From the NCBI GenBank assembly GCA_965153455.1, contig OZ234494.1:2170001-2234000 (forward strand): a stretch of 64,000 bases of DNA, given 5' to 3'. The stretch is from Sphagnum compactum. Its lineage: Eukaryota. The position numbers were made by a program, and so were the translations under genes. A model generated the notes under the pieces. It had not been told where the DNA came from. It did not search any database and worked only from the letters and a program-made list of their open reading frames with translations. Shown one piece after another: positions 20,051-49,147 of this stretch (positions are counted from its first letter, which is position 1; the number at the start of each line of letters is the position of its first letter).

Positions 20051-22268
20051 GGGTGAGGGGTTTCTCCTGCACTCTTCGAGGAAGGTCAAGGTTACACACA
20101 AATTAATTTGTAAATCCCTATCAAATCCAGATGATTTAAGATTAATGGAAAGTTCGCAAAGCTCTCAATGATCTAAAGCTAAACTAAAAGTCATCCTTCA
20201 GTTAGGTACAACATTTTCAACAGACTATGTGTTAAAGCTGACCATGTACTATAGGGGACCCATTTTGCAGCATGGCAGACGATTGATTGAACAACCAACT
20301 AACTAACTAAACTGCTAAAGGTGCCTACAAAGGCGCAGACAAGAATTCGTTGCCCATCTGGACGTGTTAGGATCCAGATGGGCAGTGATTCCAACTATGG
20401 AAGGTTACAGCTGAAGGTCAACAGAGGAATCACAACTGCCCATGCACCCAGTACCCGCTAAAGCAGAGCCGCTGAAGCCAATGACGTGCAAAAAGAATAG
20501 ATTATGGTGAAGTACATGACCACCAGAACAGGCACCCAATACTCGCTGAAGCAGAGCCGCTGAAGCCAATGTAAAGTGTAAGTGCAGGGTTGCATCATCA
20601 AGTGCACCATCCCACCACACTTGTACACACTGCTGCTAGCCCTATCAGACGTGTGCCACAGATGCAGTAGACGACAACCTCTCACGACCTTTTCAATCTA
20701 TGTTTACGTGTGTGTGTGTGTGTGCGTGCATGCACGTATGTCTGTTTTCTTTGAGAATCTAAATAGTCGGAATTGCCATCCTTACTGTCTCGCTCGCCGT
20801 CTTTTTTGATCATCTGCTCTCTTGCGTGCGCGCCTACACGTGTGTCTGTTCTCTTTGTGAATAGAATAGTAAGAAATGCCTAATGCACACGTGTGTGTTT
20901 AAAATAAATCAAACATGCACCTAAAACTGGTGGGTCTTTGCCGGTCCTAACCCACCCCATCCGGCTTAAACAGACATCCATCCCCGTCTGGTTTAAATAG
21001 ACGGCTGATGGGATGGATGAATTAAAAAATTAAAACTTTATATATATATATAAGATTATTTTTCATTTTTCTATTTTATTATTATTATTATAAACCAAAA
21101 AAAAAACACCGAAAACAGAGAACGAAAAAGAAAATGAAAAGAAGAAGACCACGTCCTCTGTATAGTAAATCTTGGGGGTGCCCCCCCTGGGGCCGAGAAA
21201 GTTTGTGCCCCGTGCCTAATGCATAGGTGTGTTTTAAAATAAATCAAACATGCACCTAAAACTGCTGGGGGCGGGGGGGGGGGGGTTATTTATTTCTGCT
21301 AGGGTTTTCTTCCTTGTATGATGCCATCCATGGATGGATGACGGGACGAATGAATGGACGGGTCGGACGGATGGAGGAAATGTCCGTCCGGTTGGATGAC
21401 GGGACGGATGACGGACATGGGAAAGCCACGCCCTTGCTATATTTAGGTGTGTGTGTATTTGACGGTACATATTACAAAATTACAACTACAAACTATAGTT
21501 CCAAAATAACGGCGTCCGCACAGTTTCACATAGCCAAACAAAACGGCCGCTCTCAAGGATTAAATGAGATAAAGAGGGACTGGATAGGTGTTGGACTATA
21601 TAGTGGGTGAAGGGCATTTCCAAAAGTAAGGGACCTAGAACGACACAATAGCCAAGTTTGGGCTCACATTTTGCAAATGTTCTCAACTCATGTGCTCTAC
21701 CCATAGTTAAAGCATGAGGAAAGCATTATCGGGAACTTGAACATATATATCATAGTCCCTGAACGGATTCAGCAAATGTTTGCCAAATAATTAATATATT
21801 TAGAATCTTAAACGTTGGCTCTGGATTTTTGAAAATTTTAGTATAGATAATATCATTAGCAAGAGACAACAAACTGTAACGACTATATAGCAATCCTGGT
21901 TTGTCTAAACTGTGTGTGATGGGTGTTTGGCCCCCATAGACCTGAGTTCTCAAATCTCAAATCTGACCCCCATAAACTTTTTTTTGTTGATTTTGGCATT
22001 CTTGGTAATTTTTTTTTTCAAATTTTAATTAATTTGAAAATTATATAATTAATGCTGAATTTGTTAAAGAGTATGATAAATCAGGAGAAGTAAATTAGGA
22101 GGGGGAAGGGTTCTTTACACCTTAAGTGTAACATCGTCACCCCCTTCCCTCTCGAGGAGTCCAATCTCACCAAAGACACCAACTTGAATGTTACTTGGAT
22201 CCAGCAGGACCTTGTGTTGCTGCAATGCAAATGACAACTTACCATGATTATTTAAATACTTGTGAATA

Positions 22269-22506
22269 TCAAAGTTTTGACTTGGAGAAGAGTTTAGAAG
22301 TTGTGGAAGCATGTGGACCCAATGATCTGCAATCGAGCCTAGCGCGCCAGCCACAAAGAAGATCAGCAACAATGTTCAGCCGATCTTGGCCCCATAAAAT
22401 GGAAACAGATTTGCCTTCAGGATCAAGAACTTGAAATGTTGGTGCTCCAATGCCACCAAGTTCCTGCACCTACCATCCCTCCCAAATCAGTTCCAGGCAC
22501 CATTAT
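22269..22506 (-). pseudogene. Captured exon of a DsbA-family protein (2-hydroxychromene-2-carboxylate isomerase / GST-kappa-like), copy 1
   Basis: VQELGGIGAPTFQVLDPEGKSVSILWGQDRLNIVADLL matches the G.FG.PTF...WGQDRL C-terminal signature. Preceded by an AG acceptor. Near-identical to ~36382-36616. Confidence 0.65.
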
Positions 22507-23281
22507 CGAGAAGTACAGTTTTAAAGGAGGAGCAAGAAAGTGAATTCTCACATGTTGCTCAGCTCTGCTTAAAGTCCAATTGCAAGGTACTCACCACAGG
22601 GTGGAAAATGTTAAATCGGCCAAGGATCGCAGCAATACTTTTGGGATTGACTACATTTAAGACCCTTGATCGATTCAACATATTCCACCTCAAGATCTGA
22701 GGCAGGATCTGGCCCCTCCGAAATCAACAACTATTTAAATAATTACTCATGTCTGGATCCTTCGCAGCTCACTCACAACTCAGGAAGAAGGTTCATACAG
22801 AGTGCAAAAGAAAAACCTACCTTCAAATATCACCCCAGGTCCTTGATGATTATATCAATTGAATAATAACATCAGCAGCAGCAGGGCGGCGGGACCCCCA
22901 ACCCCCTTCTCCTCGCTTTGCTTCACTTCAGAAGGCAGCGCGGACGGATCGAACGAAGACCAAATTCCGAAAAACAGAAAATGACGGAGAGCGGCCATGT
23001 GGATGCGAGAGCATGGAATCCGTCCGTCAAGGACGGATGGGAGGAGGCGGCCTGAAATTTTTTAAAAAATTCTTGGCCGGCAGACAACAGGCAAGCAGAT
23101 CATTGGGTTCCTTGATTCTCATTCGCACTCCGACATGGCAGCTCGATCGCATCACATAATCACTTCGTTGGAGATTAGAAAGCCTAAGATCAACTCCTAA
23201 TGAGATGTGATGCGCGGGAGCTCGCGAGGGTGGTTGAGAGGCCATCCCGCACCCGCGTGCACGCGGACACGTGTCTCACCC

Positions 23282-23560
23282 ACGCCCTCGGTATACTTAG
23301 CTACTGTCGGTGGCTACATGTCCGTCCGTCCGGTTGGATGACGGGACGGATGACGGACATGGAAAAGCCACGCCCACGGTATACTTAGCTACTGTCGGTG
23401 GCTACATGTCCGTCCGTCCGGTTGGATGACAGGACGGATGACGGACATGGGAAAGCCACGCCCTCGATATACTTAGCTACTGTCGGTGGCTACATGTCCG
23501 TCTGTCCGGTTGGATGACGGGACGGATAACGGACATGGGAAAGCCACGCCCTCGCTATAT
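23282..23560. repeat. 88-bp tandem repeat, ~3.2 copies, inside a Helitron unit
   Basis: ACGCCC(T/A)CG(G/A)TATACTTAGCTACTGTCGGTGGCTACATGTCCGTC...GAAAGCC starting at 23282, 23370, 23458 and 23546. Confidence 0.9.
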
Positions 23561-23683
23561 TTAGCGCCGGACGGATTTAGGGGAAGCTTCATTCGCACGG
23601 CTTCAGGGGAAGCTTCATTGTTCCTTTACTATAGATAACTAGTTTGAGCCCCGTGCATAATGCACAGGTGTGTGTATTTGATG

Positions 23684-23718
<35 letters not shown>

Positions 23719-23903
23719 ATAATTTTTCATTTTTCTATTTTATTATTATTATTATAAACAAAAACAAACACCGAAAAGAGAGAACGAAAAAGAAAATGAA
23801 AAGAAAAACACCCCGTCCTCTGTACAGTAAATCTTGGGGTGCCCCCCTTGGGGCCGGGCAAGTTTGTGCCCCGTGCATACTGCACAGGTGTGTGTATTTG
23901 ACG

Positions 23904-23952
<49 letters not shown>

Positions 23953-25332
23953 CATACATATATATATAAGATAATTTGTCATTTTTCTATTTTATAATTA
24001 TTATTATAAACAAAAAGAAACACCGAAAAGAGAGAACGAAAAAGAAAATGAAAAGAAAAACACCCCGTCCTCTGTACAGTAAATCTTGGGGGTGCCCCAC
24101 CTGGGGCCGGGCAAGTTTGTGCCCTGTGCCTAATGCACAGGTGTGTGTTTAAAATAAATCAAACATGCACCTAAAACTGCTGGGTCTTTGCCGGTCCTAA
24201 CCCACCCCATCCGGCTTAAATAAACATCCATCCCCGTCCAGCTTAAATAGACGGTTGATGGGATGGATGAATTCAAAAATTAAAACTTTATATATATATA
24301 TATATAAGATTATTTTTCATTTTGCTATTTCATTATTATTATTATAAACCAAAAAAAAACACCGAAAACAGAGAACGAAAAAGAAAATGAAAAGAAAAAC
24401 ACCCTGTCCTCTGTACAGTAAATCTTGGGGGTGCCCCCCCTGGGGCCGGGCATGAAGGGGCGGGGGGGGGTTATTTATTTCTCCCAGGGTTTTCTTCCCT
24501 GTACGATGCCATCTTCCCTGTATGACGAGATGGATGGATGGACGGGTCAGACGGATGGAGGAAATGTCCGTCCGAATGTCCGTCTGATCCGGACGAATTT
24601 AGGGGAAGCTTCATTCGTCCCGTGCCTAATGCACAGGTGTGTGTATTTGACGGTACATATATATATATATATATATATAAGATAATTTTTCATTTTTCTA
24701 TTTTATTATTATTATTATAAACAAAAAGAAACACCGAAAACAGAGAACAAAAAAGAAAATGAAAAGAAAAACACCCCGTCCTCTGTACCCTAAATCTTAG
24801 GGGTGTCCCCCCTGGGGCCGGGCAAGTTTGTGCCCCGTGCCTAATGCACAGGTGTGTGTTTAAAATAAATCAAACATGCACCTAAAACTGCTGGGTCTTT
24901 GCCGGTTTTAACCCACCCCATCCGGCTTAAATAGACATCCATCCCCGTCCGGCTTAAATAGACGGCTGATGGGATGGATGAATTAAAAAATTAAAACTTA
25001 TATATATATATATATATGAGATTATTTTTCATTTTTCTATTTTATCATTATTATTATAAACCAAAAAAAAAACACCGAAAGCAGAGAACGAAAAAGAAAA
25101 TGAAAAGAAAAAGACCACGTCCTCTGTATAGTAAATCTTGGGGGTGCCCCCCCTGGGGCCGGGCATGAGGGGGCGGGGGGGGGGGGTTATTTATTTCTGC
25201 CAGGGTTTTCTTCCCTGTATGATGCCATCTTCCCTGTATGACGGGACGGATGGATGGACGGGTCGGACGGATGGAGGAAATGTTCGTCCGATTGGATGAC
25301 GGGACGGATGACGGACATGGGAAAGCCACGGC

Positions 25333-25599
25333 TGTCATGGCCTAGGATATTTTTGGATACTTTTGGCAATGTCATGTCCTAGGATATTTTGGGATACTTT
25401 TGGCAATATCATGGCCTAGGATATTTTGGGATACTTTTGGCAATATCATGGCCTAGGATATTTTGGGACTAGTATGGCTCAGGGTTATAAAAGGAGATAG
25501 TCTGGGGAACAACCCTTTAGCAGATCAACACCAGTTGATGGATTAATAAAGCTTGTCTTGTCTTGTAATTCTCCACTTGTTTGTAGTCGGTCCATAACA
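25333..25599 (+). repeat. 5' LTR with 37-bp tandem repeats in U3, TATA box and poly(A) signal
   Basis: TCATGGCCTAGGATATTTTGGGATACTTTTGGCAAT units at 25335, 25372, 25409, 25446. TATAAAA at 25486. AATAAA at 25545. Confidence 0.95.
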
Positions 25600-25740
25600 G
25601 TTTGATCTGCTCCTTCTTCTTGTTTGTTTGTTTTGTTGTTTCAGTAAGTAGCTAGAGGTATATTGGAGTGAAACTTGGAAAGGTTATAGAAGACTATAGG
25701 ACGCTTCTACTCTCAAAGTTTCAAAAGAAAAGGATATGTT

Positions 25741-26240
25741 TTGAGAGAGATCCAAGCATCTGAAGTTTCAAGTGCAGATCTGGTTTTTTGGTTATATCTC
25801 CTTTGTGTAAGCTTTTTTGGGTCTGTAACTTTGTGATCTTATAGATCATATAGGAATATATGTGTGAGAGAAATTTCATGTCATTTGGACTTGTATTGAG
25901 AGAGATCCAAGCATCTGAAGTTTCAAGTGCAGATCTGGTTTTTTGGTCATATCTCCTTTGTGTAAGCTTTTTTGGGTCTGTAACTTTGTGATCTTATAGA
26001 TCATATAGGAATATATGTGTGAGAGAAATTTCATGTCATTTGGACTTGTATTGAGAGAGAGATTCAAGCATCTGAAGTTTCAAGTGCAGATCTGGTTTTT
26101 TGGTCATATCTCCTTTGTTTAAGTTTTTTTCGGTCTGTAACTTTGTGATCTTATAGATCATATAGGAATATATGTGTGAGAGAAATTTCATGTCATTTGG
26201 ACTTGTATTGAGAGAGATCCAAGCATCTGAAGTTTCAAGT
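25741..26240 (+). repeat. ~155-bp tandem repeat (3 copies plus a partial) in the retrotransposon 5' leader
   Basis: TTGAGAGAGATCCAAGCATCTGAAGTTTCAAGTGCAGATCTGG... recurs at ~25741, 25897, 26051 and 26208. Confidence 0.92.
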
Positions 26241-26278
26241 TTGAAGATTGAAAGCGCAAAAGTGTGAGAACTACCACC

Positions 26279-27253
26279 ATGGACAACTCAGAATCCAACA
26301 TCGATCTCACTCAAATCCTCGCCGCCCTTCAACACCTTCAACAAGAAAATGCCGTGCTTAGAGACTCGGTGACCCGCCTACAAAATCAGCCACCACCTCC
26401 TGCCCCAGTACTTCCTGCTCTTGCAATGGCCGCCTAAGAACCCAAGATCAGTCTGCCAGAAAAGTTTGATGGAACGCGCCTCAAATTTCGAGGCTTTGTC
26501 AGCCAGGTACGCCTGATCATGCAACTACACCCCCGTCGTTATTTTGATGACACCACTCGTGTAGGATTCGTTGGAACCCTACTCACTGGGACAGCTGCAG
26601 CATGGTTTGCTCCCATCCTGGAAACATCATCCCCTCTTCTACAAGATTTCAACGCCTTTATGGCGGAATTTGAAGCAGTATTTGGGGACAGTGATAAGGC
26701 CAGGACTTCAGCCAACAAGCTGCGTCGCCTCCAGCAAGGGACACGTTCGGCCATCGTCTACGCTTCAGAATTCAGGCAGCTTGCCTGTGACGTCAATTGG
26801 GGAGAAGTTGCCTTGATTGATCAGTTTCGCTGTGGGCTTCGTGATGATGTTCAAGATCTTTTGTTGACACTCGCAGACCCTTCTTCCTTCAGTGAAGCCA
26901 TCACCTAGGCAATTCGGTGCGATAATCGTCTGTTCGAACGTCGCTAGGAAAAGAAAGTCACCTCCAACGCCCAGCTTTGGAACAGTCGGCCTATTACGCT
27001 CCCCTTAGTTCCCCAAACAACACCAGTTGCCCGACCTGCCTCTTTTGGACCTGCTCCGATGCAGATCGACACAACTAAGTTTAAATCTTTGACAGAAGCC
27101 GAGAAACTTCGCCGAAGGACAAACAATCTATGTCTTTACTGTGACAACCCAGGGCATATAGCTCGTCAATGCCCTCAAAAGCTTGTCAAACTTCAGGTAC
27201 AAGCTGTGGAAACTCCCCAGGAGTTGGAAAACAAGAACATCCAGTCACAGTAG
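26279..27253 (+). pseudogene. gag: Retrotransposon gag with zinc knuckle, three in-frame stops
   Basis: ATG at 26279, EPKISLPEKFDG, LRRLQQG...[28 protein letters not shown] (CCHC). Premature TAA at ~26434 and TAG at ~26906 and ~26945. Confidence 0.92.
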
Positions 27254-30200
27254 GAGCCGTGCGACTGGATCTCACCCAACACCACCTTTGCAAAGGCTCC
27301 TGTTCCGCTGTTGGTCCCAGTCCCAGTTTCACTCAGTATGTGGACATCATTCGTATTCCAGAAGACATACCACAAGTGTCAGCTTTGGTGGACTCCGGCG
27401 CCACCTCTTCTTTCATCGACCAAACATTTGTCGTCCAACACAACATCCCTGTGGTCAAGAAGTCAACCCCTGTTCCGGTAGAGGTTATTGATGGGAGAAC
27501 CATTGCTTCTGGTGCAATCACACACGAGACAACCCCTCTAGAACTCTGTATCGGTAAGCACACGGAGAAGATTGTTTTCAACATCATTTCCACCCCTTAC
27601 CATCCCATCATCCTTGGTCTGCCTTGGCTAGAAGCACACAACCCTATCATTGATTGGCGATCTAGAACCCTCACCTTTAGCGCACAACGATGCACCTCTC
27701 AAGAACCCCACGCTCAGAAAAACACTTTGTCCAGTCCTGCCAAGAACCCTGTGGTCGAGAACCCAAAGAGGGTCGGAACCAATTCCAGTTTTATCAAGTC
27801 TGTTATGTCAAATCCTGCAGTCAAGAACCTCCGATTGGTCAGAACGAAACCTTGTCCTGTCAAGAATCTTGTCAAGAATTCTGCCCAGAAAACCAACCCT
27901 GTCCAGATCTTCGTTGATAGAGCTGTCCCTTTCTATCGGGCTGCTAAGAATCTTCAAGTCTTTGCCATCCATGTCAACCCAGCCAACACCACAAACCCCC
28001 AATCGGAACCAACACCTGTCAAACTTCCCAAGAAGTACAAGGACTTTGTTGATGTTTTTGAAAAGATTAATGCTGATCAGCTCCCCGCCCATAGTCCATA
28101 TGACTGCCCGATTGATCTAGAAGAAGGACACTCACCACCCTTTGGTCCTATCTATGGCCTATCAGAACCGGAACTCCAAGCCCTGCGTGATTACCTTACT
28201 GAAAATCTTGTCAAGGGGTTCATTCAGCATTCCAAGTCTCCAGCCGGCGCCCCAATTTTGTTTGTCAAGAAGAAGGATGGCTCCCTTCGACTTTGTGTGG
28301 ATTATCGTGGACTCAACAAGATAACCAAAAAGAATCGATATCCTTTGCCCTTGATTTCAGGTCTCCTAGATCGACTACGTACCGGGAAGATCTTCACCAA
28401 GCTTGACCTCCGTGGAGCCTACAACTTACTCAGGATTCGCCCTGGTGATGAATGGAAGACAGCTTTCCGCACACGCTATGGCCACTTCGAATACACGGTC
28501 ATGCCCTTCGGCCTCACCAATGCACCCGCAGTCTTTCAACATCTGATGAATGATATCTTCCGGGATTACATGGACGAATTTGTCGTGGTCTATTTGGATG
28601 ACATTTTAATCTTTTCCAAGGACCAGGAAACCCACGACAAACATGTACGATTGGTGCTTGCGACGCTGCGGGAGCATGGCTTATACGCCAAGTTGGAAAA
28701 ATGTGAATTCGACAAATCTTCAGTGGCGTTCCTCGGCTACGTGATCTCTCCAGATGGCATTTTCATGGACAAGTCAAAGGTCGAGACCATCCAGTGTTGG
28801 GCTACTCCATCCTCGGTCAAGGACGTTCAACGCTTCCTAGGGTTTGCCAACTTCTATCGTCGGTTTATCAAAGGCTACTCCAAGATCACAACACCGTTAA
28901 TAACCCTGACTTGCAAAGACAAGCCCTTCTCGTGGAATCCAACGGCCCAGGCTGCTTTTGATACTCTCAAGATGGCAATCACCTCTGCACCCATCCTGAT
29001 ACATCCCGATCCTGCCAAGCCATTCATTGTGGAAACGGACGCTTCAGATTTTGCCTTGGGAGCTATTCTATCTCAATTTGGAATAGATGGGTTGCTGCAT
29101 CCAGTTGCTTTCTATTCACGGAAGTTAACCAGTGCCGAAATCAACTACCAGGTCTACGATAAGGAACTCCTGGCAATCATCACGGCATTCGAGCAGTGGA
29201 GACCGTATCTTGCCGGAGCTCAACATCGAGTCCAAGTTCTGACAGATCACAAGAATCTCCTTTATTTCACAACTACTCAGACCTTAAATCGTCGCCAGGC
29301 ACGCTGGTCTATCTTCCTAGCTGATTTCAACTTTGAGATTCAGTATCAACCCGGCACCCAGCAAGGGAAAGCTGACGCGCTATCTCGTCGTTCAGAATAT
29401 GAACTTCGAGCGGGGGATGAGGCCTACGGCCAGCAGAACTAGACTTTATTCAACCCTAAGCAATTTCGAGTTGCAGCAACAATCAGCACCCTCCCAGACT
29501 CATACCTTGTTAGGGACATCAAGATAGCAACTGAGGAAGACACTTGGGCTACCAACATCAAGAAGGAACTCCAAGAACGACCAAGGAACCCAAATCGTGA
29601 TGACTTGGATCAATTTGAGCAACAAGACGGACTTCTCCTTCGAAATAACCTGATTTATGTACCCGAAGGACCTATACGCCTAAAAATCCTGAGGGAATGC
29701 CACGACAACACCCTGGCAGGTCACTTTGGAATGGCACGGACTCACGAACTAGTGTTAAGGACTTACTGGTGGCCCAAAATGAACAAGATGCTACGGGAGT
29801 ATGTCAAGTCTTGTGATACATGTGCTCGATCCAAGGCTCCCAGGCATCGCCCGTTTGGACTCCTACAGCCTCTATCGATTCCTAGCCGACCTTGGGGATC
29901 TATTGCAATGGACTTCATCATGGACCTCCCTATTGTCAGAACCAAGAATTCAATACTGGTTGTGGTCGATCGACTCACCAAAATGGCCCATTTCACCCCT
30001 TGTTCCAAGTCAATCACGGCAGAAGAGACAGCTCAGTTAATTCTAGACGGGATCGTCCGACTGCATGGACTCCCCGAGGAAATTGTGTCCGACAGAGGTC
30101 CTCAGTTTGCATCCAAGTTCTGGCATTGTCTATTCGAGCTTCTTGGAGTTGACATTCGGCTATCTTCAGCTTTCCACCCTAAGACAGATGGACAAACCGA

Positions 30201-30984
30201 ACGGACAAACCAGACACTCGAGCAATACCTTCGCTGCACTGTGAACTACCAACAAGACGACTGGCTGGACCTACTATCTCAAGCAGAGTTTGCTTATAAT
30301 AACACAACACATGCATCGACCGGGATCAGTCCATTCTTTGCCAATTACGGTTTTCATCCCAGGTTCAGCCTTGAAATTCCTGGAGACTCCGTAAACCCCT
30401 CGGCTGAAGAAAGGGCCACGAGGCTTGGACAGGTTCAACAGAACCTTATGGCAGAACTCAAGCTAACACAGGAGTGGCAAAAGAAGCAAGCAGACCGCTG
30501 ACGCAAGGACCATCCAAACTTCAAGGTTGGAGACAAGGTCTGGCTTCTCAGAAAGAACATTGCTACCACTCGCCCATGTGCCAAGTTGGATTACAAGCGC
30601 CTCGGACCTTTCAAAATCGCCAAATTGGTTGGTCTAGTGGCTTGCCAGTTGGAGCTTCCACCCCAGTTCAAAATCCACAATGTTTTCCATGTCTCCCTGC
30701 TTGAGCCCTATCATGAAAACCCGATCCCAGAACGTCATCAAGAACCCCCAGCTCCAGTCGAAATTGAAGGCCAAGAAGAGTTTGAAGTTCAGGAGGTCTT
30801 GGACTCCAAGAAGATTCGTGGAAAGCTCCTGTACCTTGTCTTTTGGCGAGGTTATCCTCCTTCTGAAGCTACTTGGGAGCCTGCTGGAAACCTAGTTCAT
30901 GCCCAAGACTTAGTTAATCGATTTCACCAACGATATCCTAACAAACCGGCTCCATCTAGAAGATGTCGCTTGAGGAGAGGATAA
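27226..30984 (+). pseudogene. pol: Retrotransposon pol (protease, RT, RNase H, integrase, chromodomain), two in-frame stops
   Basis: ALVDSGAT (PR), YLDDILIFS (RT), ETDASDFALG/DKELLAI (RNase H), HDNTLAGH...CDTC, MDFI, SDRGPQF, GQTERTNQ (IN), GPF motif, EEFEVQEVLDSK...YLVFWRGYPPSEATWEP (chromodomain). Stops TAG at 29440 and TGA at 30499. Confidence 0.95.
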
Positions 30985-31251
30985 TGTCATGGCCTAGGAT
31001 ATTTTGGGATACTTTTGGCAATGTCATGTCCTAGGATATTTTGGGATACTTTTGGCAATATCATGGCCTAGGATATTTTGGGATACTTTTGGCAATATCA
31101 TGGCCTAGGATATTTTGGGACTAGTATGGCTCAGGGTTATAAAAGGAGATAGTCTGGGGAACAACCCTTTAGCAGATCAACACCAGTTGATGGATCAATA
31201 AAGCTTGTCTTGTCTTGTAATTCTCCACTTGTTTGTAGTCGGTCCATAACA
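30985..31251 (+). repeat. 3' LTR
   Basis: Same length as the 5' LTR; about 2 substitutions by eye. Confidence 0.95.
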
Positions 31252-37419: not shown

Positions 37420-38272
37420 CTGTGAGATTACCTGAGCTTCAGATGCTTTAACTGCCTCCACTTCCATGAGAGCTGCTTTCAGTTGACTTTGTAACATAGC
37501 TGTGTGTGCCTGGACTTCCTCCAATTCATGTTTCGCTGCGGCTGCTTCTTTTCTTCCCTTCAATGCCATTGCCTTTTCCTCATCTGCTTCCATTGTCACC
37601 TGTCATCACACACCCCCCCCACCCCATCTTCTATTCTCAGATCGGCTATTTATACTTGAAGACCTGGGTACTGCTGTACCTGTTTGAATATGTAAAAGTG
37701 AATAGCCTCTTACCCATCACTGGCATCAGACCTTAGAGAAGGAAAAAGCCTCTCAACTGACCTGATGCAAGGCATCATTTAAGCCAGATATGGACTCTTT
37801 TGCTTTGCTCTCTGCCTGTATGCCAGCTTCTAAGAGAGACTTAGCTTTGGAGAGCTCCAACTCCATCTCTGTAGTAACATCAGCAACAGTCACCTCATAC
37901 TCCTCCTTCACAGCTGCAAGCTCTGTCATGGTGTTTTTCAGCTCTGCCTTCAGGGATGCCAGAGATGCAAACATCCTTTGCTCCTGCTCTATTGCCTTCT
38001 TCACTTTTGCGTTTGACTCCTCCAACTACATTGCATATGACCTTGCCTTCCAACACTTGAAAATCAGTTTTTAATCTCTTGTCCTCTTTGGGTTTTGTTA
38101 CAAATCAGCAGCATAACAATTAACATCAGCCTCAAAGAGACAATGACAAATATTACAGAACTCAATTGATTGAACTGAGTACCTTTTCTGCAGTTTTTGT
38201 TGCATCCTCAAGGTCTATCCTCGATCCTCGCAATTTCAATCTGTAATCCCCAACAGCACCTTTCAATTTCAT
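37420..38272 (-). pseudogene. Captured multi-exon fragment of a WEB-family (WEB1/PMI2-like) coiled-coil gene
   Basis: Exons 38183-38272, 37762-38025 (SLASLKAELKNTMTELAAVKEE...LNDALHQ) and 37432/37420-37599 (VTMEADEEK...LKAALMEVEAVKASEAQ), with GT-AG introns retained. Confidence 0.7.
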
Positions 38273-41200
38273 CTTGGGGCCGGACGGATTTAGGGGAAGC
38301 TTCATTCGCACGGCTTTAGCGGAGGCTTCATTGTTCCTTTACTATAGACTAGTTTGAGCCCCGTGCATAATGCACAGGTGTGTGTATTTGACGGTACATA
38401 TTACAAAATGATGCTCAATGATATTGGTGTCGTAATTACTTTGTTTATTTTAAATAAAAAATCTAGTATGAATCCATTTTTGCTTGTGCATTTGACGATA
38501 CATATTACAAAATGATACCTACCAACTACATTTCCAAAACCTCTTTATATACCACATTCCGCATGTATCTATCGGGAGCCTGGCCGTTGAAAATCTTGAT
38601 GTTTGCACTACTTGTGACCCGTGAAATAACAACATAGAGCTGACCATGGGAATAGACCGGAGATGGCAAATATACCCCAACGTTGTTGAATGTTTGACCT
38701 TGACAGCTTAGTAGGGTTTCCAGAAATTACATGAATAAAATGAAGATTTTTGCCCTCAGCCCCCTAATAGCTTGGAAGCATTCCAGGAGGCTCATGTCCT
38801 TGGCCATAATGAATAGCTTGGACTTATTTCCAGGCTTACAATGATTGGAGAGGAAACTGATAATTTGTGATCTCTGTAGAAAAAAGCTGCATGCAAAGGA
38901 ATGCAAAGACAAATGATAAAAGTTCAAGGGGGGAATTCCTATCCAGTACATTAAGGCGAAGGAGCAAAAGAGCACAACCAAGAATATTTAGCTACTGGTT
39001 TACGGTAATTGTTCCAAAATTTCTATTACCTCACTATTCATCTTCCACCTTGATAAAGATTGTTGTGCAGAAATATGAGCTTTTGCTGCAAGCTCAAGGA
39101 TGACATTTGTAGAGTGAAGCTTTCCAATGTGGTTAAGGAAGAATAATATGAAATCACCTGCAATTATACCCATATGACAACAGAGGTGAACTAACTGTAG
39201 AAGCAAAGTCCTGCAAAAACAAAAAGACCACCCTGAACCTGTATGAATATAAGAACATAACTCAAGAATCGATGCAGAAATTTCCAACATATTCATATGC
39301 AAAAACCCCCCAACATATGTTGAACTTGGAAAGCTCAGAGCAACTGGCAGCTATGAACAATACGGAGCACCACGTCAAGTCGAATATAAAAATCAGCGCT
39401 GGTGCTGCATCCAAACACAACGATCAGGTAAGTATTTGAATGAGACTTTTCATTACCACAGAATATTGTATAAAGTCTAACTGCTACGGGTCATGATGTA
39501 CGTGCGATCAACTACCGATGGTGCAGGATGAAGCAGTGCAGAAGAGCTTATACCCACAACATCGTTAAGCTGTTGTTGTTGTTGCTGCTGCTGTTGCCGG
39601 ATTGCCACTGACGTGAATCTGCACCAGATCAGGAGATTGTCGACATTGAAAGCTCATGCGACAGCAAGTAGCTCTGGTGATGAGGAGGAGGAGATTCTGA
39701 TGGAGATAATTCTCTACAACTTTGACCATGCAGACTATGTGGATCCTGTGCCCGCTGAAGCAGAGCCGCATCGTAATGGAAAATAATGAGTTGCGAAAGC
39801 CATGTGCAAGTTCCTCTTAATATAGCTTCTACAAAGTGTAAGTGCAGGGTTGCATCATCAAATGCACCATCCCACCACACTTGTACACACTGCTGCTAGC
39901 CCTATTAGACGTGTGCCACAGATGCAGCAGACGACAACTTCTCGCGACCTTTTCAATCTATGTTTGTGTGTGTGTGTGTGTGTGTGCATGCACGTCTGTC
40001 TGTTTTCTTTGAGAATCTAAATAGCCAGAATTACCATCCTTACTATCTCGCTCGCCGTCTTTCTTGATCATCTGCTCTCTTGCGTGCGCGCCTGCACGTG
40101 TGTCTGTTCTCTTTGTGAATAGAATAGTAAGAAATGCCTAATGCACACGTGTGTGTTTAAAATAAATCAAACATGCACCTAAAACTGGTGGGTCTTTGCC
40201 GGTCCTAACCCACCCCATCCGGCTTAAACAGACATCCATCCCCGTCCGGCTTAAATAGACGGCTGACGGGATGGATGAATTAAAAAATAAAAACTTTATA
40301 TATATATATATAAGATTATTTTTCATTTTTCTATTTTATTATTATTATAAACAAAAAAAAACACCAAAAACAGAGAACGAAAAAAAAAATGAAAAGAAAA
40401 AGACCACGTCCTCTGTATAGTAAATCTTGGGGGTGCCCCCCTTGGGGCCGGGCATGAGGGGGCGGATTAAGGGGAAGCTTCATTCGTCCGGCTTCAGGGG
40501 AAGCTTCATTGTTCTCCGATCACAGCAACGTCATGGAAGGAGACCCTTATTAGTACTCCTTATAAGAAGAAGAAGAAGTTAAGCTTAGAATCGTCCTCAT
40601 AAATACGTAGACCTTTAGAATGGGTTGTTATCAATATGTACTCAACGATATTCTTAAGTAATTTTGGTGGCATATATAAGAAGCTTAAGCTCTTTGAATA
40701 TTTTCCATAAAAGGAAGAAAAACTTGATTTGTAATTGTCTTTTGCATCACCAACAACAGATTAATATGACATTAATAGCGAGTGCCATCATCAGTTTGAG
40801 CCCCGTGCATAATGCACAGGTGTGTGTATTTGACGGTACATATATATATATTTATAAGATAATTTTTCATTTTTCTATTTTATTATTATTATTATAAACA
40901 AAAAGAAACACCGAAAATAGAGAACGAAAAAGAAAATGAAAAGAAAAACACCCTGTCCTCTATACAGTAAATCTTGGGGGTGCCCCCCCTGGGACCGGGC
41001 AAGTTTGTGCCCCGTGCCTAATGCACAGGTGTGTGTTTAAAATAAATCAAACATGCACCTAAAACTGCTGGGTCTTTGCCGATCCTAACCCACCCCATCC
41101 GGCTTAAATAGACGGCTGATGGGATGGATGAATTAAAAAATTAAAACTTTACATATATATATATATAAGATTATTTTTCATTTTTCTATTTTATTATTAC

Positions 41201-41734
41201 TATTATAAACCAAAAAAAAACACCGAAAACAGAGAACGAAAAAGAAAATGAAAAGAAAAACACCCCGTCCTCTGTACAGTAAATCTTGGGGGTGCCCCCC
41301 CGGGGCCGGGCAAGTTTGTGCCCCATGCCTAATGCACAGGTGCGTGTTTAAAATAAATCAAACATGCACCTAAAATTGCTGGGTCTTTGCCGGTCCTAAT
41401 TCACCCCATCCGGCTTAAATAGACATCCATCCCCATCCGGCTTAAATAGACGGCTGATGGGATGGATGAATTAAAAAATTAAAACTTATATATAAGATTA
41501 TTTTTCATTTTCTATTTTATTATTATTATTATAAACCAAAAAAAAACCACCGAAAACAGAGAACGAAAAAAAAATGAAAAGAAAAAGCCCACGTCCTCTG
41601 TACAGTAAATCTTGGGGGTGCCCCCCCTCGGGCCGGGCATGAGGGGGCGGGGGGGGGGTTATTTATTTCTGCCAGGGTTTTCTTCCTTGTATGATGCCAT
41701 CTTCCTTGTATGACGAGACGGATGGATGGACTGG

Positions 41735-43790
41735 GGCCGGGTACCCCCAAGATTTACTATACAGAGGACGGGGTGTTTTTCTTTTCATTTTCTTTTTTGT
41801 TCTTTGTTTTCGGTGTTTCTTTTTGTTAATAATAATAATAATAAAATAGAAAAATGAAAAATTATCTTATATATATATATGTACCGTCAAATACACACAC
41901 CTGTGCATTATGCACGGGGCTCAGACTATATTGTTAAGGAAGAAAGTTCCTTCCCCTGAAGTTGTCCCGTACGAACATTTCATCCATCCCGTCAAGTAGC
42001 CTCCCCTGAATCCGCCCGAACCGTCATCCGTCCCGTCATCCATCCGGATGGATGAAATCCGTCTATTTACAGCAACAAGAGCCGCAATAGCAGGAATAGC
42101 AACAGCAGGAGCGATGGCGACGGCTGTGAATGAAGCCTCCCCTGAAGCCGGACGGACAGTGGCCACGGACAGTAGCTAAAAAAAAGGTAGTTTTGGTGCA
42201 TAGTTATGGGCCTCAAAATAAGGACAAAGTCAAAGAACTGGCAGTTCTTCCACGAAAACCATGAGCTCGGCAAGGTTGTTGAAATGAAAGGAACCGACGG
42301 TTCTTTCGTTCCTGTTGGGTTCTCAAGAACCGGAACCGAAAGGTTAAAGAACTGGAGTGGGAAATGCGAAGGACCGGGCCGGGGGGGATCGACGGGTTAA
42401 AGACCCGGAGTGGGAAATGCGAAGGACCGGGCGAGGGGGCTCGACGGGTTAAAGAACCGAAGTGGGAAATGCGAAGGACCGGGCGGGGGGGGGGTCGACG
42501 GGGTTGAACCAAACATTGTTGAAATAACACACCTGTGCATTATGCACGGGGCACACACTAGTATATAGTAAAGGAACAATGAAGCGTCCCCTGAAGCCGT
42601 GCGAATGAAGCTTCCCCTAAAGCCGTGCGAATGAAGCTTCCCCTGAATCCGTCCAGATTTGCATGCATGTGATTAGAATCAGTAAAAGCCTTTGTGGAAC
42701 TGGCAGTGACGAAACTTCCAAGGGGATCGTTGGTGTTTCCAGGGGTGGCCAAGCCATGGAACACGAAGTCGCTTGCCTTCTGACGGGATGGATGACAGAC
42801 GGACGGTTGGAAAGCTTCATTTCATCCCGACAGAAAGCTTCATTTCATCCCGAGATGGATGACGGACGGATGGATGACGAAATGACAGGACAGGATGGAT
42901 GACGGATGACAGGATGGATGAAAGACTTCTGTGTCGCCGATCCATCCCATCATCCGTCCCGTCATCTAACCAAAAGGACATTTCATCCATCCCGTCATCC
43001 GTCTATTAAAGTCGGATGGGGTGGGTTAGGACCGGCAAAAACCCAGCAGTTTTAGGTGCATGTTTGATTTATTTTAAACACACACCTGTGCATTAGGCAC
43101 GGGGCACAAACTTGCCCGGCCCCGGCCCCAGGGGGGGCACCCCCAAGATTTACTGTACAGAGGACGGGGTGTTTTTCTTTTCATTTTCTTTTTCGTTCTC
43201 TGTTTTCGGTGTTTCTTTTTGTTTATAATAATAATAATAAAATTAAAAAATGAAAAAATTATCTTATATATATATATATGTACCGTCAAATACACACACC
43301 TGTGCATTATGCACGGGGCTCAAACTTGCCCGGCCCCTAGGGGGGCACCCCCAAGATTTACTGTACAGAGGACGGGGTGTTTTTCTTTTCATTTTCTTTT
43401 TTGTTCTCTGTTTTCGGTGTTTCTTTTTGTTAATAATAATAATAATAAAATAGAAAAATGAAAAATTATCTTATATATAAATTTTAATTTTTTAATTCAT
43501 CCATCCCATCAGCCATCTATTTAAGCCGGACGGGGATGGATGTCTATTTAAGCCGGATGGGGTGAATTAGGACCGGCAAAGACCCAGCAGTTTTAGGTGC
43601 ATGTTTGATTTATTTTAAACACACACCTGTGCATTAGGCACGGGCACAAACTTGCCCGGCCCCAGGGGGGCACCCCCAAGATTTACTATACAGAGGACGG
43701 GGTGTTTTTCTTTTCATTTTTTTTTTCGTTCTCTGTTTTCGGTGTTTCTTTTTGTTTATTATAATAATAATAAAATAGAAAAATGAAAAA
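41735..43790 (+). mobile_element. Inverted (plus-strand) block of the same Helitron family, including a CTAG|TATATAGTAAAGG head-to-tail junction at 42561/42562
   Basis: Reverse complements of the cluster modules. CACCTGTGCATTATGCACGGGGCACACACTAG is immediately followed by TATATAGTAAAGGAACAATGAAGC. Confidence 0.8.
42352..42507. repeat. ~52-bp tandem repeat, 3 copies
   Basis: G(G/A)AGTGGGAAATGCGAAGGACCGGGC...TCGACGGGTT repeated three times. Confidence 0.85.
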
Positions 43791-44422
43791 TTGTGCCCCG
43801 TGCCTAATGCACAGGTGTGTGTTTAAAATAAATCAAACATGCACCTAAAATTGCTAGTTTGAGCCCCGTGCATAATGCACAGGTGTGTGTATTTGACGGT
43901 ACATATATATATATAAGATAATTTTTCATTTTTTTATTCTATTATTATTATTATAAACAAAAAGAAACACCGAAAACAGAGAAGGAAAAAGAAAATGAAA
44001 AGAAAAACACCCCGTCCTTTGTACAGTAAATCTTGGAGGTGCCCCCCCTGGGGCCGGGCAAGTTTGTGCCCCGTGGGTAATGCACAGGTGTGTGTTTAAA
44101 ATAAATCAAACATGCACCTAAAACTGCTGGGTCTTTGCCGGTCCTAACCCACCGTATCCAGCTTAAATTGACATCCATCCCCGTCCGGCTTAAATAGACG
44201 GCTGATGGGATGGATGAATTAAAAAATTAAAACTTTATATATATATATATAATTTTTCATTTTTCTATTTTATTATTATTATTATAAACCAAAAAAAAAA
44301 CACCGAAAACAGAGAACGAAAAAGAAAATGAAAAGAAAAAGACCACGTCCGGTTCGGACGAATTTAGGGGAAGCTTCATTCGCACGGCTTCAGGGGAAGC
44401 TTCATTGTTCCTTTACTATATA

Positions 44423-44466
44423 CTAGTTTGAGCCCCGTGCATAATGCACAGGTGTGTGTATTTGAC

Positions 44467-44501
<35 letters not shown>

Positions 44502-45099
44502 ATATAAGATAATTTTTCATTTTTCTATTTTATTATTATTATTATAAACAAAAAGAAACACCAAAAACAGAGAACGAAAAAAAAAATGAAAAGAAAAACA
44601 CCCCGTCCTCTGTACAGTAAATCTTGGGGGTGCCCCCCCTAGGGCCAGGCAAGTTTGTGCCCCATGCATAATGCACAGGTGTGTGTATTTGACAGTACAT
44701 ATATATATATATATATATATAAGATAAGTTTTCATTTTTCTATTTTATTATTATTATTAGAAACAAAAAGAAACATCGAAAAAAAAGAACGAAAAAGAAA
44801 ATGAAAAGAAAACACCCCGTCCTCTGTACAGTAAATCTTGGGGGTGCCCCCCCCGGGACCGGGCAAGTTTGTGCCCCGTGCCTAATGCACAGGTGTGTGT
44901 ATTTGACGGTACATATATATATAAGATTATTTTTCATTTTTTTATTTTTTTATTATTATTATAAACAAAAAGAAACACCGAAAATAGAGAACGAAAAAGA
45001 AAACACCCCGTCCTCTGTACAGTAAATCTTGGGGGTGCCCCCCCTGGGGCCAGGCAAGTTTGTGCCCCGTGCATAATGCACAGGTGTGTGTATTTGACG

Positions 45100-45134
<35 letters not shown>

Positions 45135-46330
45135 ATAATTTTTCATTTTTCTATTTTCTATTTTATTATTATTATTATAAACAAAAAGAAACACCGAAAA
45201 TAGAGAACGAAAAAGAAAATGAAAAGAAAAACACCCCGTCCTCTGTACAGTAAATCTTGGGGGTGGCCCCCCCTGGGACCGGGCAAGTTTGTGCCCCGTG
45301 CCTAATGCACAGGTGTGTGTATTTGACGGTACATATATATATAAGATTATTTTTCATTTTTTTATTTTATTATTATTATTATAAAAAAAAGAAACACCGA
45401 AAATAGAGAACGAAAAAAAAAATGAAAAGAAAAACACCCCGTCCTCTGTATAGTAAATCTTAGGGGTGCCCCCCCTGGGGCCAGGCAAGTTTGTGCCCCG
45501 TGCATAATGCACATGTGTGTATTTGACGGTATATATATATATATATATATAAGATAATTTTTCATTTTTCTATTTTATTATTATTATTATAAACAAAAAG
45601 AAACACCGAAAATAGAGAACGAAAAAAAAAATGAAAAGAAAAACACCCCATCCTCTGTACAGTAAATCTTAAGGGTGCCCCCCCTGGGGCCGGGCAAGTT
45701 TGTGCCCCGTGCCTAATGCACAGGTGTGTGTTTAAAATAAATCAAACATGCACCTAAAACTGCTGGGTCTTTGCCGGTCCTAACCCACCCCATCCGGCTT
45801 AAATAAACATCCATCCCCGTCCGGCTTAAATAGACGGCTGATGGGATGGATGAATTAAAAAATTAAAACTTGTATATAAGATTATTTTTCATTTTTTTAT
45901 TTTATTATTCTTATTATAAACAAAAAAAAACACCGAAAACAGAGAACAAAAAAAAAATGAAAAGAAAAACACCCTGTCCTCTGTACAGTAAATCTTGAGG
46001 GTGCCCCCCCTGGGGCCGGGCAAGTTTGTGCCCCGTGCCTAATGCACAGGTGTGTGTTTAAAATAAATCAAACATGCACTTAAAACTGCTGGGTCTTTGC
46101 CGCTCCTAACCCACCCCATTCGGCTTAAATAGACGGCTGATGGGATGGATGAATTAAAAAATTAAAACTTTATATATATATATATAAGATTATTTTTCAT
46201 TTTTCTATTTTATTGTTATTATTATAAACCAAGAAAAAAACACCAAAAACAGAGAACGAAAAAGAAAATGAAAAGAAAAAGATCACGTCCTCTGTACAGT
46301 AAATCTTGGGGGTGCCCCCCAGGGCCGGGC
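44423..46330 (-). repeat. Tandem array of the ~200-230 bp Helitron subterminal module (hairpin, (AT)n, poly-purine tract, GGGGGTGCCCCCC)
   Basis: About 8 consecutive copies of CCCC(G/A)TGC(A/C)TAATGCACA...CAGTAAATCTTGGGGGTGCCCCCC...GGCAAGTTTG. Confidence 0.9.
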
Positions 46331-49147
46331 ATGAGGGGGCGGGGGGGGGAGGGTTATTTATTTCTGCCAGGGTTTTCTTCCCTGTATGATGTCATCTTCC
46401 CTATATGACGGGACGGATGGATGGACGGGTCGGACGGATGGAGGAAATGTCCGTCCGGTCCGGACGGATTTAGGGGAAGCTTCATTCGCACGGCTTCAGG
46501 GGAGGCTTCATTGTTCCTTTACTATAGATAATGATGATGATAATAATAATAATACCTCCAGATGCAACCTGCTCTCATTGAAAGCAGGAGCTCACAGAAG
46601 TCCCTTTGGAAAGACTTCCCATTTACAGTATAGTGGGTGCCCGTGACCTTCGGACACTGTGAATATTTTCCAGCCAGCATTTCTTCTACTTGCTTTGCTT
46701 ATACCATTCTGTCTCTTTCTCTTTTTATGTTTCTGTTTTCGTTGCTTCAGCGGATTCGTACTCTCCTTGCACAAAGACTTGCAGTCATCAATTCAGCAAT
46801 TTTTTCTTTTCTACTCTGCTTTGTATCCTTCAGTTCTGCTTTTCTCAGCCTCCATTGAAGCTTGCATCTTCAGGAACGACGCGACAAGAGGCGACACCCT
46901 CGAATATTTCTCATGTGCAAACCTCTTCAGGAACGACGCGACAAGAGGCGACGCGCCTCTTGGTCCAATGGGCATCATTCATCATTGTCTGTGACGAAAA
47001 TCATCCAAAAAGAGGTCATTCGTAATTCAGTCTGTGACGAAAATCATCCAAAAAAGGTCATTCGTCATTCATCATTCATCAAAGACAGACAGACGCACAG
47101 ACACCATGTTTGTAATTATATATAACATACCTCCAAGCAAGTGCCAAGCACGGCTTGTGTGGAAAATGATTGCGGCAGAAGCTGACACACACTTGCTCAG
47201 AGGGACACAACGTCAAACGTCCCCTATTAAAAAAAACTTAAGCCACATGGGGAAAGTGCCACAGTGAACTAGCATCCACCAGTGCACCATCCACTGGATG
47301 CCCCATATTCCTCACTTGTGGATGAACCTCAACTGCGTTAATATTTGGTTTCACCTTGGTAACTGATTTTGTAGCAAATAGGTCCCCTATATAGGTAGGA
47401 AAATAGATAATTACTAGGTAGGTAGATGGTTTATACATAGGTAAAGGCTGTTTTTACCACCTACCTACAAGAAGGTTGTTAGAAAATAGCTGGTTAAAAA
47501 AAGCAACTGATCTAACCACCATGGTTAATTAGGGAACTGGAAGAGATGAGCCCTTTGAAGTGGGCCTAAAAGTTCAAATAACACATTAAAGAAGTATATT
47601 TGAAAAGAATTCCCAAAAAACTCATCAAATTTTTTTTGAAGCTTATTTAAAAGAGAGTGAAGTTTGGTAGGAAAGAAGTCAATTTACAAATATTGTACAC
47701 CAAGCAATGTATGATTCTAACATAGATCCATTCATTCTCACATCTGATTTTTTTTTTCTTGACTAATTTTGTTTGTGTTGTACATTTTTATCCATTATGG
47801 CTATTTAAAATATGTACAAAACTTCAAAAATTGCATACTAAAACTAGAAACTTTCTAAAGGAAAAATAAATAATTCTTCTAATGGTTCAAGCAGAAGGTT
47901 TTGTAAATTGTTTGAGGTCATGTTCCCAAATTTAAGAGCTTCGAGTGTTGTCAAAGATTTGGTATGAAGACTAGGTCCATGGTTCACGGGGGAATATTAT
48001 TCCCACTAGCTTTTGTGCAGAAATTTGATTTATCAAACACACCTATTTGACTTTTCATAACTACATATCTACATTCCCTAATGGTTTGGTGAAAATATTT
48101 GTTTCTTGTTTTACCGTGGGAATGTAGACTAGTTTTATTTCATCATTTTCAATTTTTTCACATAAATTAAAGTCATGTTGCAATTTATATGTTTAGTTCT
48201 AATATGTAGCATTGGGTTTTTTATTAATTTGAGAACAACAAAGTTGAGGATGAGAAATAATTGCCAAACCTTTAAGACTTTGAAATAGCGATGATGACCA
48301 TGCAACTCTACAAGAAAGATATTAATTGGTATCTTGATTTTAAACCATCTGCTCATGTCAAAAGTGAGATTGGAAAGTTCATAGATGTCAAGATTTGAGT
48401 TCACATGGTAGAGGCATCTTCAAATGTCAAATTTGTTGTTGGCCATATTCACAAGGTGCATGGCAAGGACAAGATTGCTGTTACACAACATGGTGAATAA
48501 AGATTGTTAACAATGTTCTTTATGTGTTCAGTGTGAGAAAAAATCTTCTATTCATAGGGGCTTTTACAAATATGGGATATGTTGTGATTTTTGAAAAATA
48601 CAAATGTTGGATTTTCACACCACCACACCACATATAATGCTAGTTATTAGGCATAGGGATGACAATCTGTAAGCTCATGTGAATCCTTTGAAATTGAGGA
48701 AGATAGCATAGCTGAACAATCAAGAGCTTGGGTTTGAATATCAACCTTGAGATCTTGAATAGTACCTTAGCCCTTGAACTAAGGGAAAAAACATCAAACA
48801 AAAATCTTTCTCCTCCTATCAAGCAAAATTTCTTGATTTGATTGAAGGAAAATGTTTGAAGAGCAACACCTTTTCTCTTCAAAAGACTATTTTGGTGGAG
48901 AATGGTATTTGGTATGATTTTGTCAACCATTTGTTGCCTGGTGGGTAGTGGAGACAAAGATCCTTTGTGATTGCTTGACTTTCGCATCTGAGCACCATCT
49001 GCAGAGTCTTCTTTCCTCACTTGGAGACTCAAAGAGCAACTGGCACTCCACATGGAAGATATGTGCCCATAAGGTGCAGGGCAGGATTTGGAGACATACC
49101 CAATTCAGAGAAGCAAATCTTCTTTACCATATATCAAAATTGGAACC

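Follow-up and report, generated by a model that had tools for sequence, protein, structure and literature searches.

The 64-kb window of Sphagnum compactum considered here (the whole stretch of DNA that was analysed, from contig OZ234494.1; coordinates are positions within it) carries a pile-up of about 26 kb, in which at least 12 complete or truncated members of one Helitron family follow each other head to tail. With high confidence, the locus can be described as two chains of the same orientation on the minus strand, 46528-40791 (chain A) and 40514-~20443 (chain B), which were later altered by an inversion (41739-43791), by small deletions across some of the joints and by the insertion of a younger long terminal repeat (LTR) retrotransposon; equally high is our confidence that all members of the chains are non-autonomous or deletion derivatives. 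The chains seem to have grown by serial, end-directed integration of new copies at the termini of resident ones, a reading to which we assign a probability of roughly 50%.

A sequence-only reading of the same DNA had proposed a head-to-tail stack of same-family Helitrons of about 26 kb. The family assignment and the arrangement are borne out, the termini being constant (about 70 nt at the 5' and 35-40 nt at the 3' end) and the interiors variable. A 5.9-kb LTR retrotransposon, a single-copy spacer of 276 bp and an inverted block of 2.1 kb lie inside the 26 kb.

Joints and units of the two chains

The 5' motif of 24 nt was found six times in the window (23635-, 34881-, 38348-, 42562+, 44422- and 46528-, the sign giving the strand), and the 27-nt hairpin motif of the 3' end 22 times with up to three mismatches allowed; 100 shuffles gave an expectation of none for both. 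All copies are confined to 23612-46528. Twelve of the 22 hairpins are internal, lying within a subterminal tandem repeat of 209/311 bp, and only ten are of the terminal type, a difference explained by the fact that every repeat unit ends in a hairpin copy. Nine head-to-tail joints are recognisable. Five of them are intact; in two more the 5' end is degenerate, and the remaining two have lost parts of both ends. All were read directly from the window:

23639/23635, minus strand: intact joint CTAG-TTA-TCTATAG
34885/34881, minus strand: intact joint CTAA-TTA-TCTATAG
38349/38348, minus strand: intact direct joint CTAG/TCTATAG
44423/44422, minus strand: intact direct joint CTAG/TATATAG
42561/42562, plus strand: intact direct joint CTAG/TATATAG
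41929/41930, plus strand: joint with a degenerate 5' end (41889-41961 against 42522-42596, 82.9%)
31977, minus strand: joint with a degenerate 5' end
~24619 and ~21449, minus strand: two joints with both ends truncated

The five intact joints had been reported before, and each of them was recovered with the same letters at the same place. Five of the six intact 5' ends thus adjoin a 3' end, and the sixth (46528) is preceded by host DNA ending in A. Seven of the ten terminal-type 3' ends examined directly precede an intact or degenerate 5' end. If 6 starts and 10 ends were scattered at random over 26 kb, five such adjacencies would arise with a probability calculated analytically as 1.6e-15, so that adjacency is far above what random insertion would give.

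The 5' end of the family is composed of 16 nt and two copies of a 26-nt repeat, with three copies in the unit at 42562, while 20 nt around the hairpin of the minimal 3' end are invariant in the ten aligned copies of terminal type. Three different sequences precede the last ~35 nt of the 3' end, and the same subtypes are present in isolated metagenome copies. Cargo-free members possess an interior made of a 120-nt module, here called P, and a tandem array of 311-bp and 209-bp units (period 209, 5.9 copies at 44490-45731; period 311 at 40842-41639), each of which closes with a hairpin copy bearing CTTG and not CTAG. A further repeat of 88 bp was noticed at 23280-23565 (3.2 copies, in unit E9), with partial copies at 21382-21446, 25282-25330 and 37235-37290 next to the P module or inside unit E7; it seems to be a family module following the 5' end in one sub-lineage.

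The units of both chains are given below from right to left. Raw reads mentioned here and later come from a Hi-C run labelled with the same species; some 2% of it was aligned to positions 34700-40800 of the window at a likeness of at least 90%.

46529..46554, no strand: host flank, an (ATT)n/(ATC)n microsatellite ending in ...CATTA next to TCTATAG
44423..46528, minus strand: chain A, E1, 2106 bp, no cargo; TCTATAG 5' end, P, two 311-bp and about six 209-bp units, hairpin and CTAG
43854..44422, minus strand: chain A, E2, 569 bp; TATATAG 5' end directly at the CTAG of E1, own CTAG followed by C
43792..43853, minus strand: chain A, 62-bp end-piece of a 311-bp unit at the right breakpoint of the inverted block (31300-31363 against 43792-43855, 96.9%)
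41739..43791, plus strand: chain A, inverted block of three head-to-tail units
up to 41929, plus strand: first unit of the inverted block, a repeat unit ending in CTAT at 41929
41930..42561, plus strand: second unit of the inverted block, E4, 632 bp; diverged 5' end, 52-bp repeats, CTAG
42562..~43791, plus strand: third unit of the inverted block, E3; TATATAG 5' end, tripled 26-bp repeat, without a clean 3' end
40791..41735, minus strand: chain A, 5'-truncated unit; part of P, two long units and one short unit, terminal-type hairpin, CTGA, then T and single-copy DNA
40515..40790, no strand: spacer between the chains, 276 bp of non-family DNA without self-matches; raw-read depth 6.8 (bin 40616-40800), like the lowest bins
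38349..40514, minus strand: chain B, E6, 2166 bp, deletion derivative of an autonomous element; 5' end without its first 12 nt, one long unit, unique piece U, CTAG
34885..38348, minus strand: chain B, E7, 3464 bp, rich in cargo; 72-nt 5' end, 39-nt 3' end (CTAA)
31977..34884, minus strand: chain B, TTA (34882-34884) and E8 (34881-31977, 2905 bp); 3' end CTAT
31252..31976, minus strand: chain B, degenerate 5' end right after E8; 13 nt, distal part of the 5' end, other sequence, end of a long unit, partial 88-bp repeat cut by the retrotransposon
24619..25332, minus strand: chain B, family body; partial 88-bp repeat, P, a long and a short unit, hairpin cut after GCACGG and joined to the next unit
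23639..24617, minus strand: chain B, unit of 979 bp; 5' end without its first 40 nt, P, one long and two short units, CTAG
21449..23638, minus strand: chain B, TTA (23636-23638) and E9 (23635-~21449); 88-bp repeats (3.2 copies), blocks X and Y, 3' region stopping just before the hairpin
20443..21448, minus strand: chain B, truncated E10; partial 88-bp repeat, P, long unit, piece U

The breakpoints of the inverted block fall in a G/C-rich, near-palindromic stretch of the repeat unit, and flipping the block back would leave one orientation throughout the locus. The 276-bp spacer is probably original host DNA. E8 is built of a 5' end, a 21/22-bp minisatellite, an ABCG-like exon and two bodies of family modules joined via piece U; its minisatellite (34215-34671) comprises about 14-20 copies with 67-74% identity and lies between the 5' end and the exon. 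For E10 no 3' terminus was found, and family homology fades between 20573 and ~20443. The units with a measured length span 569, 632, 979, 2106, 2166, 2905 and 3464 bp, and their shared modules are 86-95% identical. Lengths, contents and this module identity rule out a concatemer of like monomers for the whole chain, in agreement with the sequence-only reading, which had regarded the units as non-identical.

Spacers of 0-3 bp had also been proposed at the joints. Three joints are indeed direct, but TTA as a spacer is doubtful, since it precedes three of the six intact 5' ends, among them the outermost (46528) next to host DNA, where the match to other copies extends through ATTA (34810-34885 against 46457-46532). 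Among the loose 5' ends of raw reads, the best-supported position is likewise four bases outside TC, with 58 reads at 34885 matching through ATTA and becoming heterogeneous beyond. An (AAT)4 stands next to the 5' end in one contig of organism B, and the 5' ends of E8 and E9, both with TTA inside the chain, are identical over 70 nt. TTA is probably either part of the 5' end of one subfamily (host A/TTATC...) or what is left of an (ATT)n target; under the first of these readings, all five intact joints become precise.

Helitron identity, cargo and dispersed copies

The elements are canonical Helitrons (Helitron1/HLE1), which we state with high confidence. Four of the six intact 5' ends start with TC and two with TA, and the 3' ends in the window read CTAG, CTAA, CTAT or CTGA. 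The 3' hairpin has an 8-bp stem, ends 11 nt before CTAG and reaches a dG of -6.8 kcal/mol (z -3.2). No terminal inverted repeat was detected between the ends (9/40 ungapped matches), nor a target duplication of the Helitrons, the outer flanks of chain A, CATTA and TGATG, being different. These flanks are canonical, with ...CATTA/TC at 46528 and CTGA/T at 40791/40790, and the host A ahead of TC at the outermost 5' end fits insertion between A and T. The base after the 3' end is T at 21/21 metagenome loci (14 distinct sites); the 5' flanks of dispersed copies are seen indirectly, through reads. The A/T insertion assumed by the sequence-only reading is consistent with these flanks.

A trace of the transposase is retained in E6, whose decayed coding region includes a RepHel C-terminal remnant. 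It is an open frame at 38529-38726 on the minus strand, about 55 codons long and located some 180 bp before the 3' end at 38349, and this is where the RepHel gene ends in autonomous Helitrons. The remnant matches residues 1424-1477 of the 1496 residues of Helraiser (7lcc_A) with an E value of 2.8e-10, the weaker matches being Pif1 helicases. Among 224 open reading frames (ORFs) scanned from the window, none showed a Rep or helicase domain.

Regarding the cargo, the gene names suggested by the sequence-only reading receive partial support. Within E7, two stretches resemble WEMBL (minus strand; E 2e-4 and 6e-3) and one resembles Aa_trans (plus strand; E 9e-5); the three matches miss the Pfam cut-offs. 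A DsbA-like piece on the minus strand is a language-model lead, with 26/30 neighbours being DSBA (score 0.92). The ABCG-like exon of E8 (~33975-34100), which we take to resemble ABCG linkers, is a weak language-model lead (0.83; 31% of the cluster members carry ABC2_membrane_7). Neither the DsbA-like nor the ABCG-like piece gave a Pfam match (E up to 10) or a PDB sequence match. That each unit carries different cargo turned out to be partly correct: interiors do differ, but E7 and E9 have two blocks in common and in the same order, X (37015-37231 against 23070-23281, 91.7%) and Y (36383-36617 against 22272-22506, 97.4%), and several units are free of cargo. Beyond block Y the sequences of E7 and E9 are unrelated; piece U is found in three units. 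In our reading, the cargo reflects ordinary gene-fragment capture by Helitrons, brought in by single units and not accumulated in place.

Searching public metagenome contigs for an exact match to the last 25 nt of the 3' end yielded 21 loci, representing 14 distinct sites according to their flanks. Their ends read CTAG (16/21), CTAA (2/21) or CTAT (3/21). At five distinct sites, 357-375 bp match 38348-38704, the 3' region with the coding end, at 93-96% in an isolated context. When E6 is compared with the isolated coding-type loci L005, L006, L016, L018, L019 and L020, similarity stops exactly at 38704, where 64 loose reads were also counted; this position is probably an internal deletion breakpoint of E6 or an intron boundary of RepHel. 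At L014 and L020, the host DNA 3' of the isolated ends resembles the first 13-25 nt of the family 5' end (a TATATAGTAA-like string 6 nt after CTAG in L020), which may be due to chance in AT-rich DNA or represent remnants of diverged neighbours.

Raw reads provided a similar picture. Summed depth is 3.7-9.7 in the lowest bins (35516-36331), 19-37 in the 5' cargo of E7 and 26-31 in its 3' region, and rises to 99-149 in bins with termini or the RepHel end, the termini reaching about 15-40 times the lowest bins. At 38348, 282 loose reads leave the 3' end into heterogeneous AT-rich DNA (agreement 0.40), and 298 reads change at 38383 to a single conserved sequence upstream (agreement 0.93), which is the same as in the 3' end of E4 and at four metagenome sites and represents the dominant subfamily. 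Isolated copies are therefore the rule and the locus in the window is the exception, with the caveat that short-read and metagenome assemblies break at joints between repeats. Runs X21, X3, X6 and X8 share the same alternative bases at many sites over 34700-40800, about 1-2% off the window, so the genotype or close species represented by the window differs from that of these runs. Several sequencing runs that contain part of the window are labelled moss metagenome; the best-matching ones, from organisms A and B, share about half of the sampled words with it, and none is clearly the source individual. The joints skipping from 34839-34879 to 38364-38381 are contigs from other joint-like places that aligned in two parts, and they do not speak for an absence of E7; one such degenerate joint is absent from the window.

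The same data bear on the question of whether the stack was produced by the assembly, i.e. by chaining reads of dispersed copies through their shared termini. Such an origin would agree with the high depth of the termini and with the behaviour of contigs from the four runs, all of which break at termini, none of them spanning a joint. Read depth, however, is continuous over 6.1 kb, with 30/30 bins covered in all four runs, and a contig of an independent run, X3, contains a joint of the type seen at 31977, its 14-nt linker differing by one substitution. Collapsed repeats, moreover, would not look like degenerate and truncated joints, a cleanly nested retrotransposon with its target duplication and single-copy cargo inside units, and we regard an artefact as very improbable.

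Formation of the chains

Precise joints of one orientation between distinguishable elements need to be made by the transposase. Under serial, end-directed integration, the boundary of a resident 5' end (host A/element T) would recreate the canonical A/T target and would at the same time be the site which the transposase of the family recognises and nicks. A new copy integrating there would come to lie immediately upstream in the same orientation, leaving a CTAG/TC joint without a host base. Every arrival would supply a further donor and a further target at the same place, and local reinsertion could thus lead to a self-reinforcing chain at one locus, most copies elsewhere being isolated. By analogy with the bacterial elements IS608 and IS91, a comparison drawn in PMC5876387, a resident boundary is plausible as a preferred target.

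Several observations agree with such a growth of the chain, among them the adjacency of the ends, the different lengths of the units, the canonical outer flanks of chain A and the precedent from maize. The homology of joint modules stops at the termini on both sides, 23566-23677 and 34812-34923 being 99.1% identical over exactly 112 bp, and cargo of the E7 type is multicopy in the raw reads, as is its 3' region, which argues for units that are separately mobile elements.

Several points weigh against serial integration at resident ends. Targeting of ends is not frequent across the genome: none of the 21 metagenome 3' ends (14 sites) abuts a 5' end, and the 5' motif (up to four substitutions) is lacking at all 21 loci; this counts weakly, as assemblies under-represent joints between repeats, and so does the heterogeneous AT-rich DNA entered by most 3' ends in raw reads. 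The model predicts younger units upstream, but no decay gradient was found along the chains, and E6, which should have arrived later than E7, lacks 12 nt of its 5' end. The unusual TA start common to two units could reflect local copying. Finally, conservation of the termini exceeds that of the P module by just a modest margin (mean pairwise identity of 94.2% and 95-96.6%, compared with 91.8% for P; variable columns 9/70 in the terminus against 28/118 in P), and neutral decay after local duplication stays compatible with these values.

Local duplication and recombination would indeed offer another route, in which one or two pairs arose once and were then multiplied by unequal crossing-over, segmental or inverted duplication and deletions among internal repeats. 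Three times (20877, 32811 and 40135) a long unit breaks off at one and the same base and continues into piece U, the combination of P with a long and a short unit is present at least six times, and blocks X and Y occur twice. One block is inverted, two neighbouring 5' ends of opposite orientation share the TA variant, several joints show deletions, and the divergence of terminus and interior is not very different. Yet segmental duplication should bring flanks along, whereas homology at the joints ends exactly at the minimal termini, and the same types of units are also isolated elsewhere. A consistent higher-order period is missing as well, TTA standing once before and once after an X-Y unit. 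A higher-order repeat consisting of an X-Y unit plus the following unit, present twice, was accordingly rejected, since neither TTA nor the unrelated sequences after Y correspond. Taken together, we judge duplication from a few initial pairs to be unlikely as the origin of the chain.

Another alternative is that units were joined before they integrated. A freed 3' end could have been connected to the nicked 5' end of another family member, or termination could have failed and been followed by a template switch, and the resulting hetero-multimeric circles or concatemers would have integrated several units at once. Given TTA inside the 5' end, all intact joints are precise and free of host bases, and a precise joint is what characterises the Helraiser circle junction according to PMC5876387. 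The single orientation of all units, once the inverted block is turned back, points the same way, and so do the flanks of chain A, with a single host A in front and a single T behind, flanks that fit serial insertion as well. Rolling-circle tandem arrays have been reported in bat, rice and maize (cited in PMC5148889 and PMC12001565), but these, as far as the text of those sources goes, are arrays of like monomers, and the joining of different elements is without precedent there. The units of the window differ greatly, with shared modules of 86-95% identity, and the single-copy spacer of 276 bp requires at least two separate insertion sites. Presence/absence differences between maize lines, as reported in PMC2267711, also favour consecutive insertion, so pre-joined multimers seem to us a rather improbable source of the chains.

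Serial, end-directed integration is our preferred reading, and the sequence-only reading had likewise suggested repeated targeting of new copies to existing termini, an interpretation that is supported in part. A bolder version of it would be that the family homes to its own ends, its transposase preferring the boundary of a resident copy and reinserting locally, so that a self-reinforcing stack offering many usable starts and stops launches chimeras whose cargo is mixed, for instance the X-Y units and the two-bodied E8; this we offer tentatively, as a possible but doubtful extension.

Surroundings and known systems

Outside the Helitron system itself, the locus contains one nested element:

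25333..31251, plus strand: nearly intact LTR retrotransposon of the Ty3/chromovirus type

It inserted inside an 88-bp family repeat and is flanked by a 5-bp target duplication, ACGGC (25328-25332 and 31252-31256). Domain matches comprise gag, zinc-knuckle, protease, reverse transcriptase, RNase H, integrase and chromodomain. There are three ORF segments in the same frame, each closed by a stop, and the first two of these stops (29440-29442 and 30499-30501) break pol. Its two LTRs of 267 bp are 99.25% identical, against 86-95% for the shared Helitron modules; the retrotransposon is clearly younger than the Helitrons, and the stack in which it is nested is thus older. Repeats of 37 bp within each LTR and a 155-bp tandem repeat (3.2 copies, 25737-26240) were also recorded.

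Just left of the Helitron similarity, a 129-bp tandem repeat (2.2 copies, 96% identity, 19754-20039) lies in a frame of 234 codons (19384-20085, minus strand) without a Pfam match. At 15484-17105 (plus strand) and 12407-12787 (minus strand), malectin-like ORFs (E 5e-32 and 9e-26) and a kinase-domain fragment on the other strand seem to mark a gene region for a malectin-like receptor kinase, some 3 kb away from where the chain ends on the left. On the other side, coding pieces similar to SNAPC1 (51257-51517, minus strand, E 1e-9) and CAP-Gly (53048-53494, plus strand, E 1e-20) were found. The chain sits in a gene-bearing neighbourhood and not in obvious heterochromatin or a centromere.

The closest known case is from maize, where adjacent, non-identical Helitrons with different gene fragments meet at a G/T joint (Du et al. 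2008, BMC Genomics 9:51, PMC2267711). According to that paper, PCR showed that maize lines carry both, one or neither of the neighbours, from which consecutive insertions were argued, and a host A followed by the resident 5' T was seen as a canonical A/T target. The window resembles this pair in that CTAG stands directly before TC and that non-identical neighbours carry different gene fragments. It differs in having at least 12 units and nine joints instead of two units, in its moss host and in the long subterminal tandem repeat bearing hairpin copies.

Head-to-tail joints or tandem arrays of Helitrons are also mentioned for bat, Drosophila, rice and maize (PMC5148889, PMC5876387), among them the HeliBat junctions of bats (Pritham and Feschotte 2007, as cited in PMC2267711) and the centromeric CentHel arrays of rice and maize with truncated units (Xiong, Dooner and Du 2016, as cited in PMC5148889 and PMC12001565). 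For three tandem copies in a fungus, the same two explanations have been offered (PMC5148889). With the bat and CentHel arrays the window shares precise joints without host A, a single orientation and truncated units; in contrast to these arrays of like monomers, its units vary in length, in cargo and in the subtype of their 3' end, and genes surround the locus.

Non-autonomous Helitrons carrying gene fragments are described together with an end-bypass model of capture (PMC5148889). E7, with minimal conserved termini around a mosaic of host gene fragments in mixed orientation, is of this kind, and only the chaining is unusual. In Heli2Xen of Xenopus, which belongs to the Helitron2 group, minisatellite arrays near the ends are mentioned in PMC12001565. 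As in Heli2Xen, tandem repeats of 100-300 bp in varying number make up most of the non-autonomous copies in the window, but here every repeat unit closes with a 3' hairpin copy in which CTTG replaces CTAG. Bacterial IS91/ISCR elements transpose by an HUH rolling-circle mechanism without target duplication, and read-through of their terminator builds composite arrays with constant ends and variable payload. The family of the window works alike, although it belongs to a different superfamily and domain of life, and no membership is claimed.

A Helitron2 family is mentioned for a Sphagnum genome in PMC11417382, and this is a different group. Literature searches of main texts on tandem or head-to-tail, multi-terminus, moss/Sphagnum and centromeric Helitrons yielded no account of a long chain of unlike units or of the family of the window. 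The phenomenon as such is already known from maize (2008) and from the tandem arrays of bats; the length and heterogeneity of the chain are unusual but would not surprise a specialist. Apart from the chaining, the locus is an ordinary, old and decaying transposon nest in a gene-bearing region, with no sign of a host function.

How Helitrons choose their targets, and whether such joints reflect insertion at resident copies or rolling-circle multimers, has been a question since the reports from bat and maize. Nine joints between distinguishable units represent far more ordered events than the two-unit case of maize, which makes the locus a useful test case for target choice. If the family does home to its own ends, it would be a eukaryotic counterpart of those rolling-circle insertion sequences in which target equals end, and it would provide a natural record of the order of integration.

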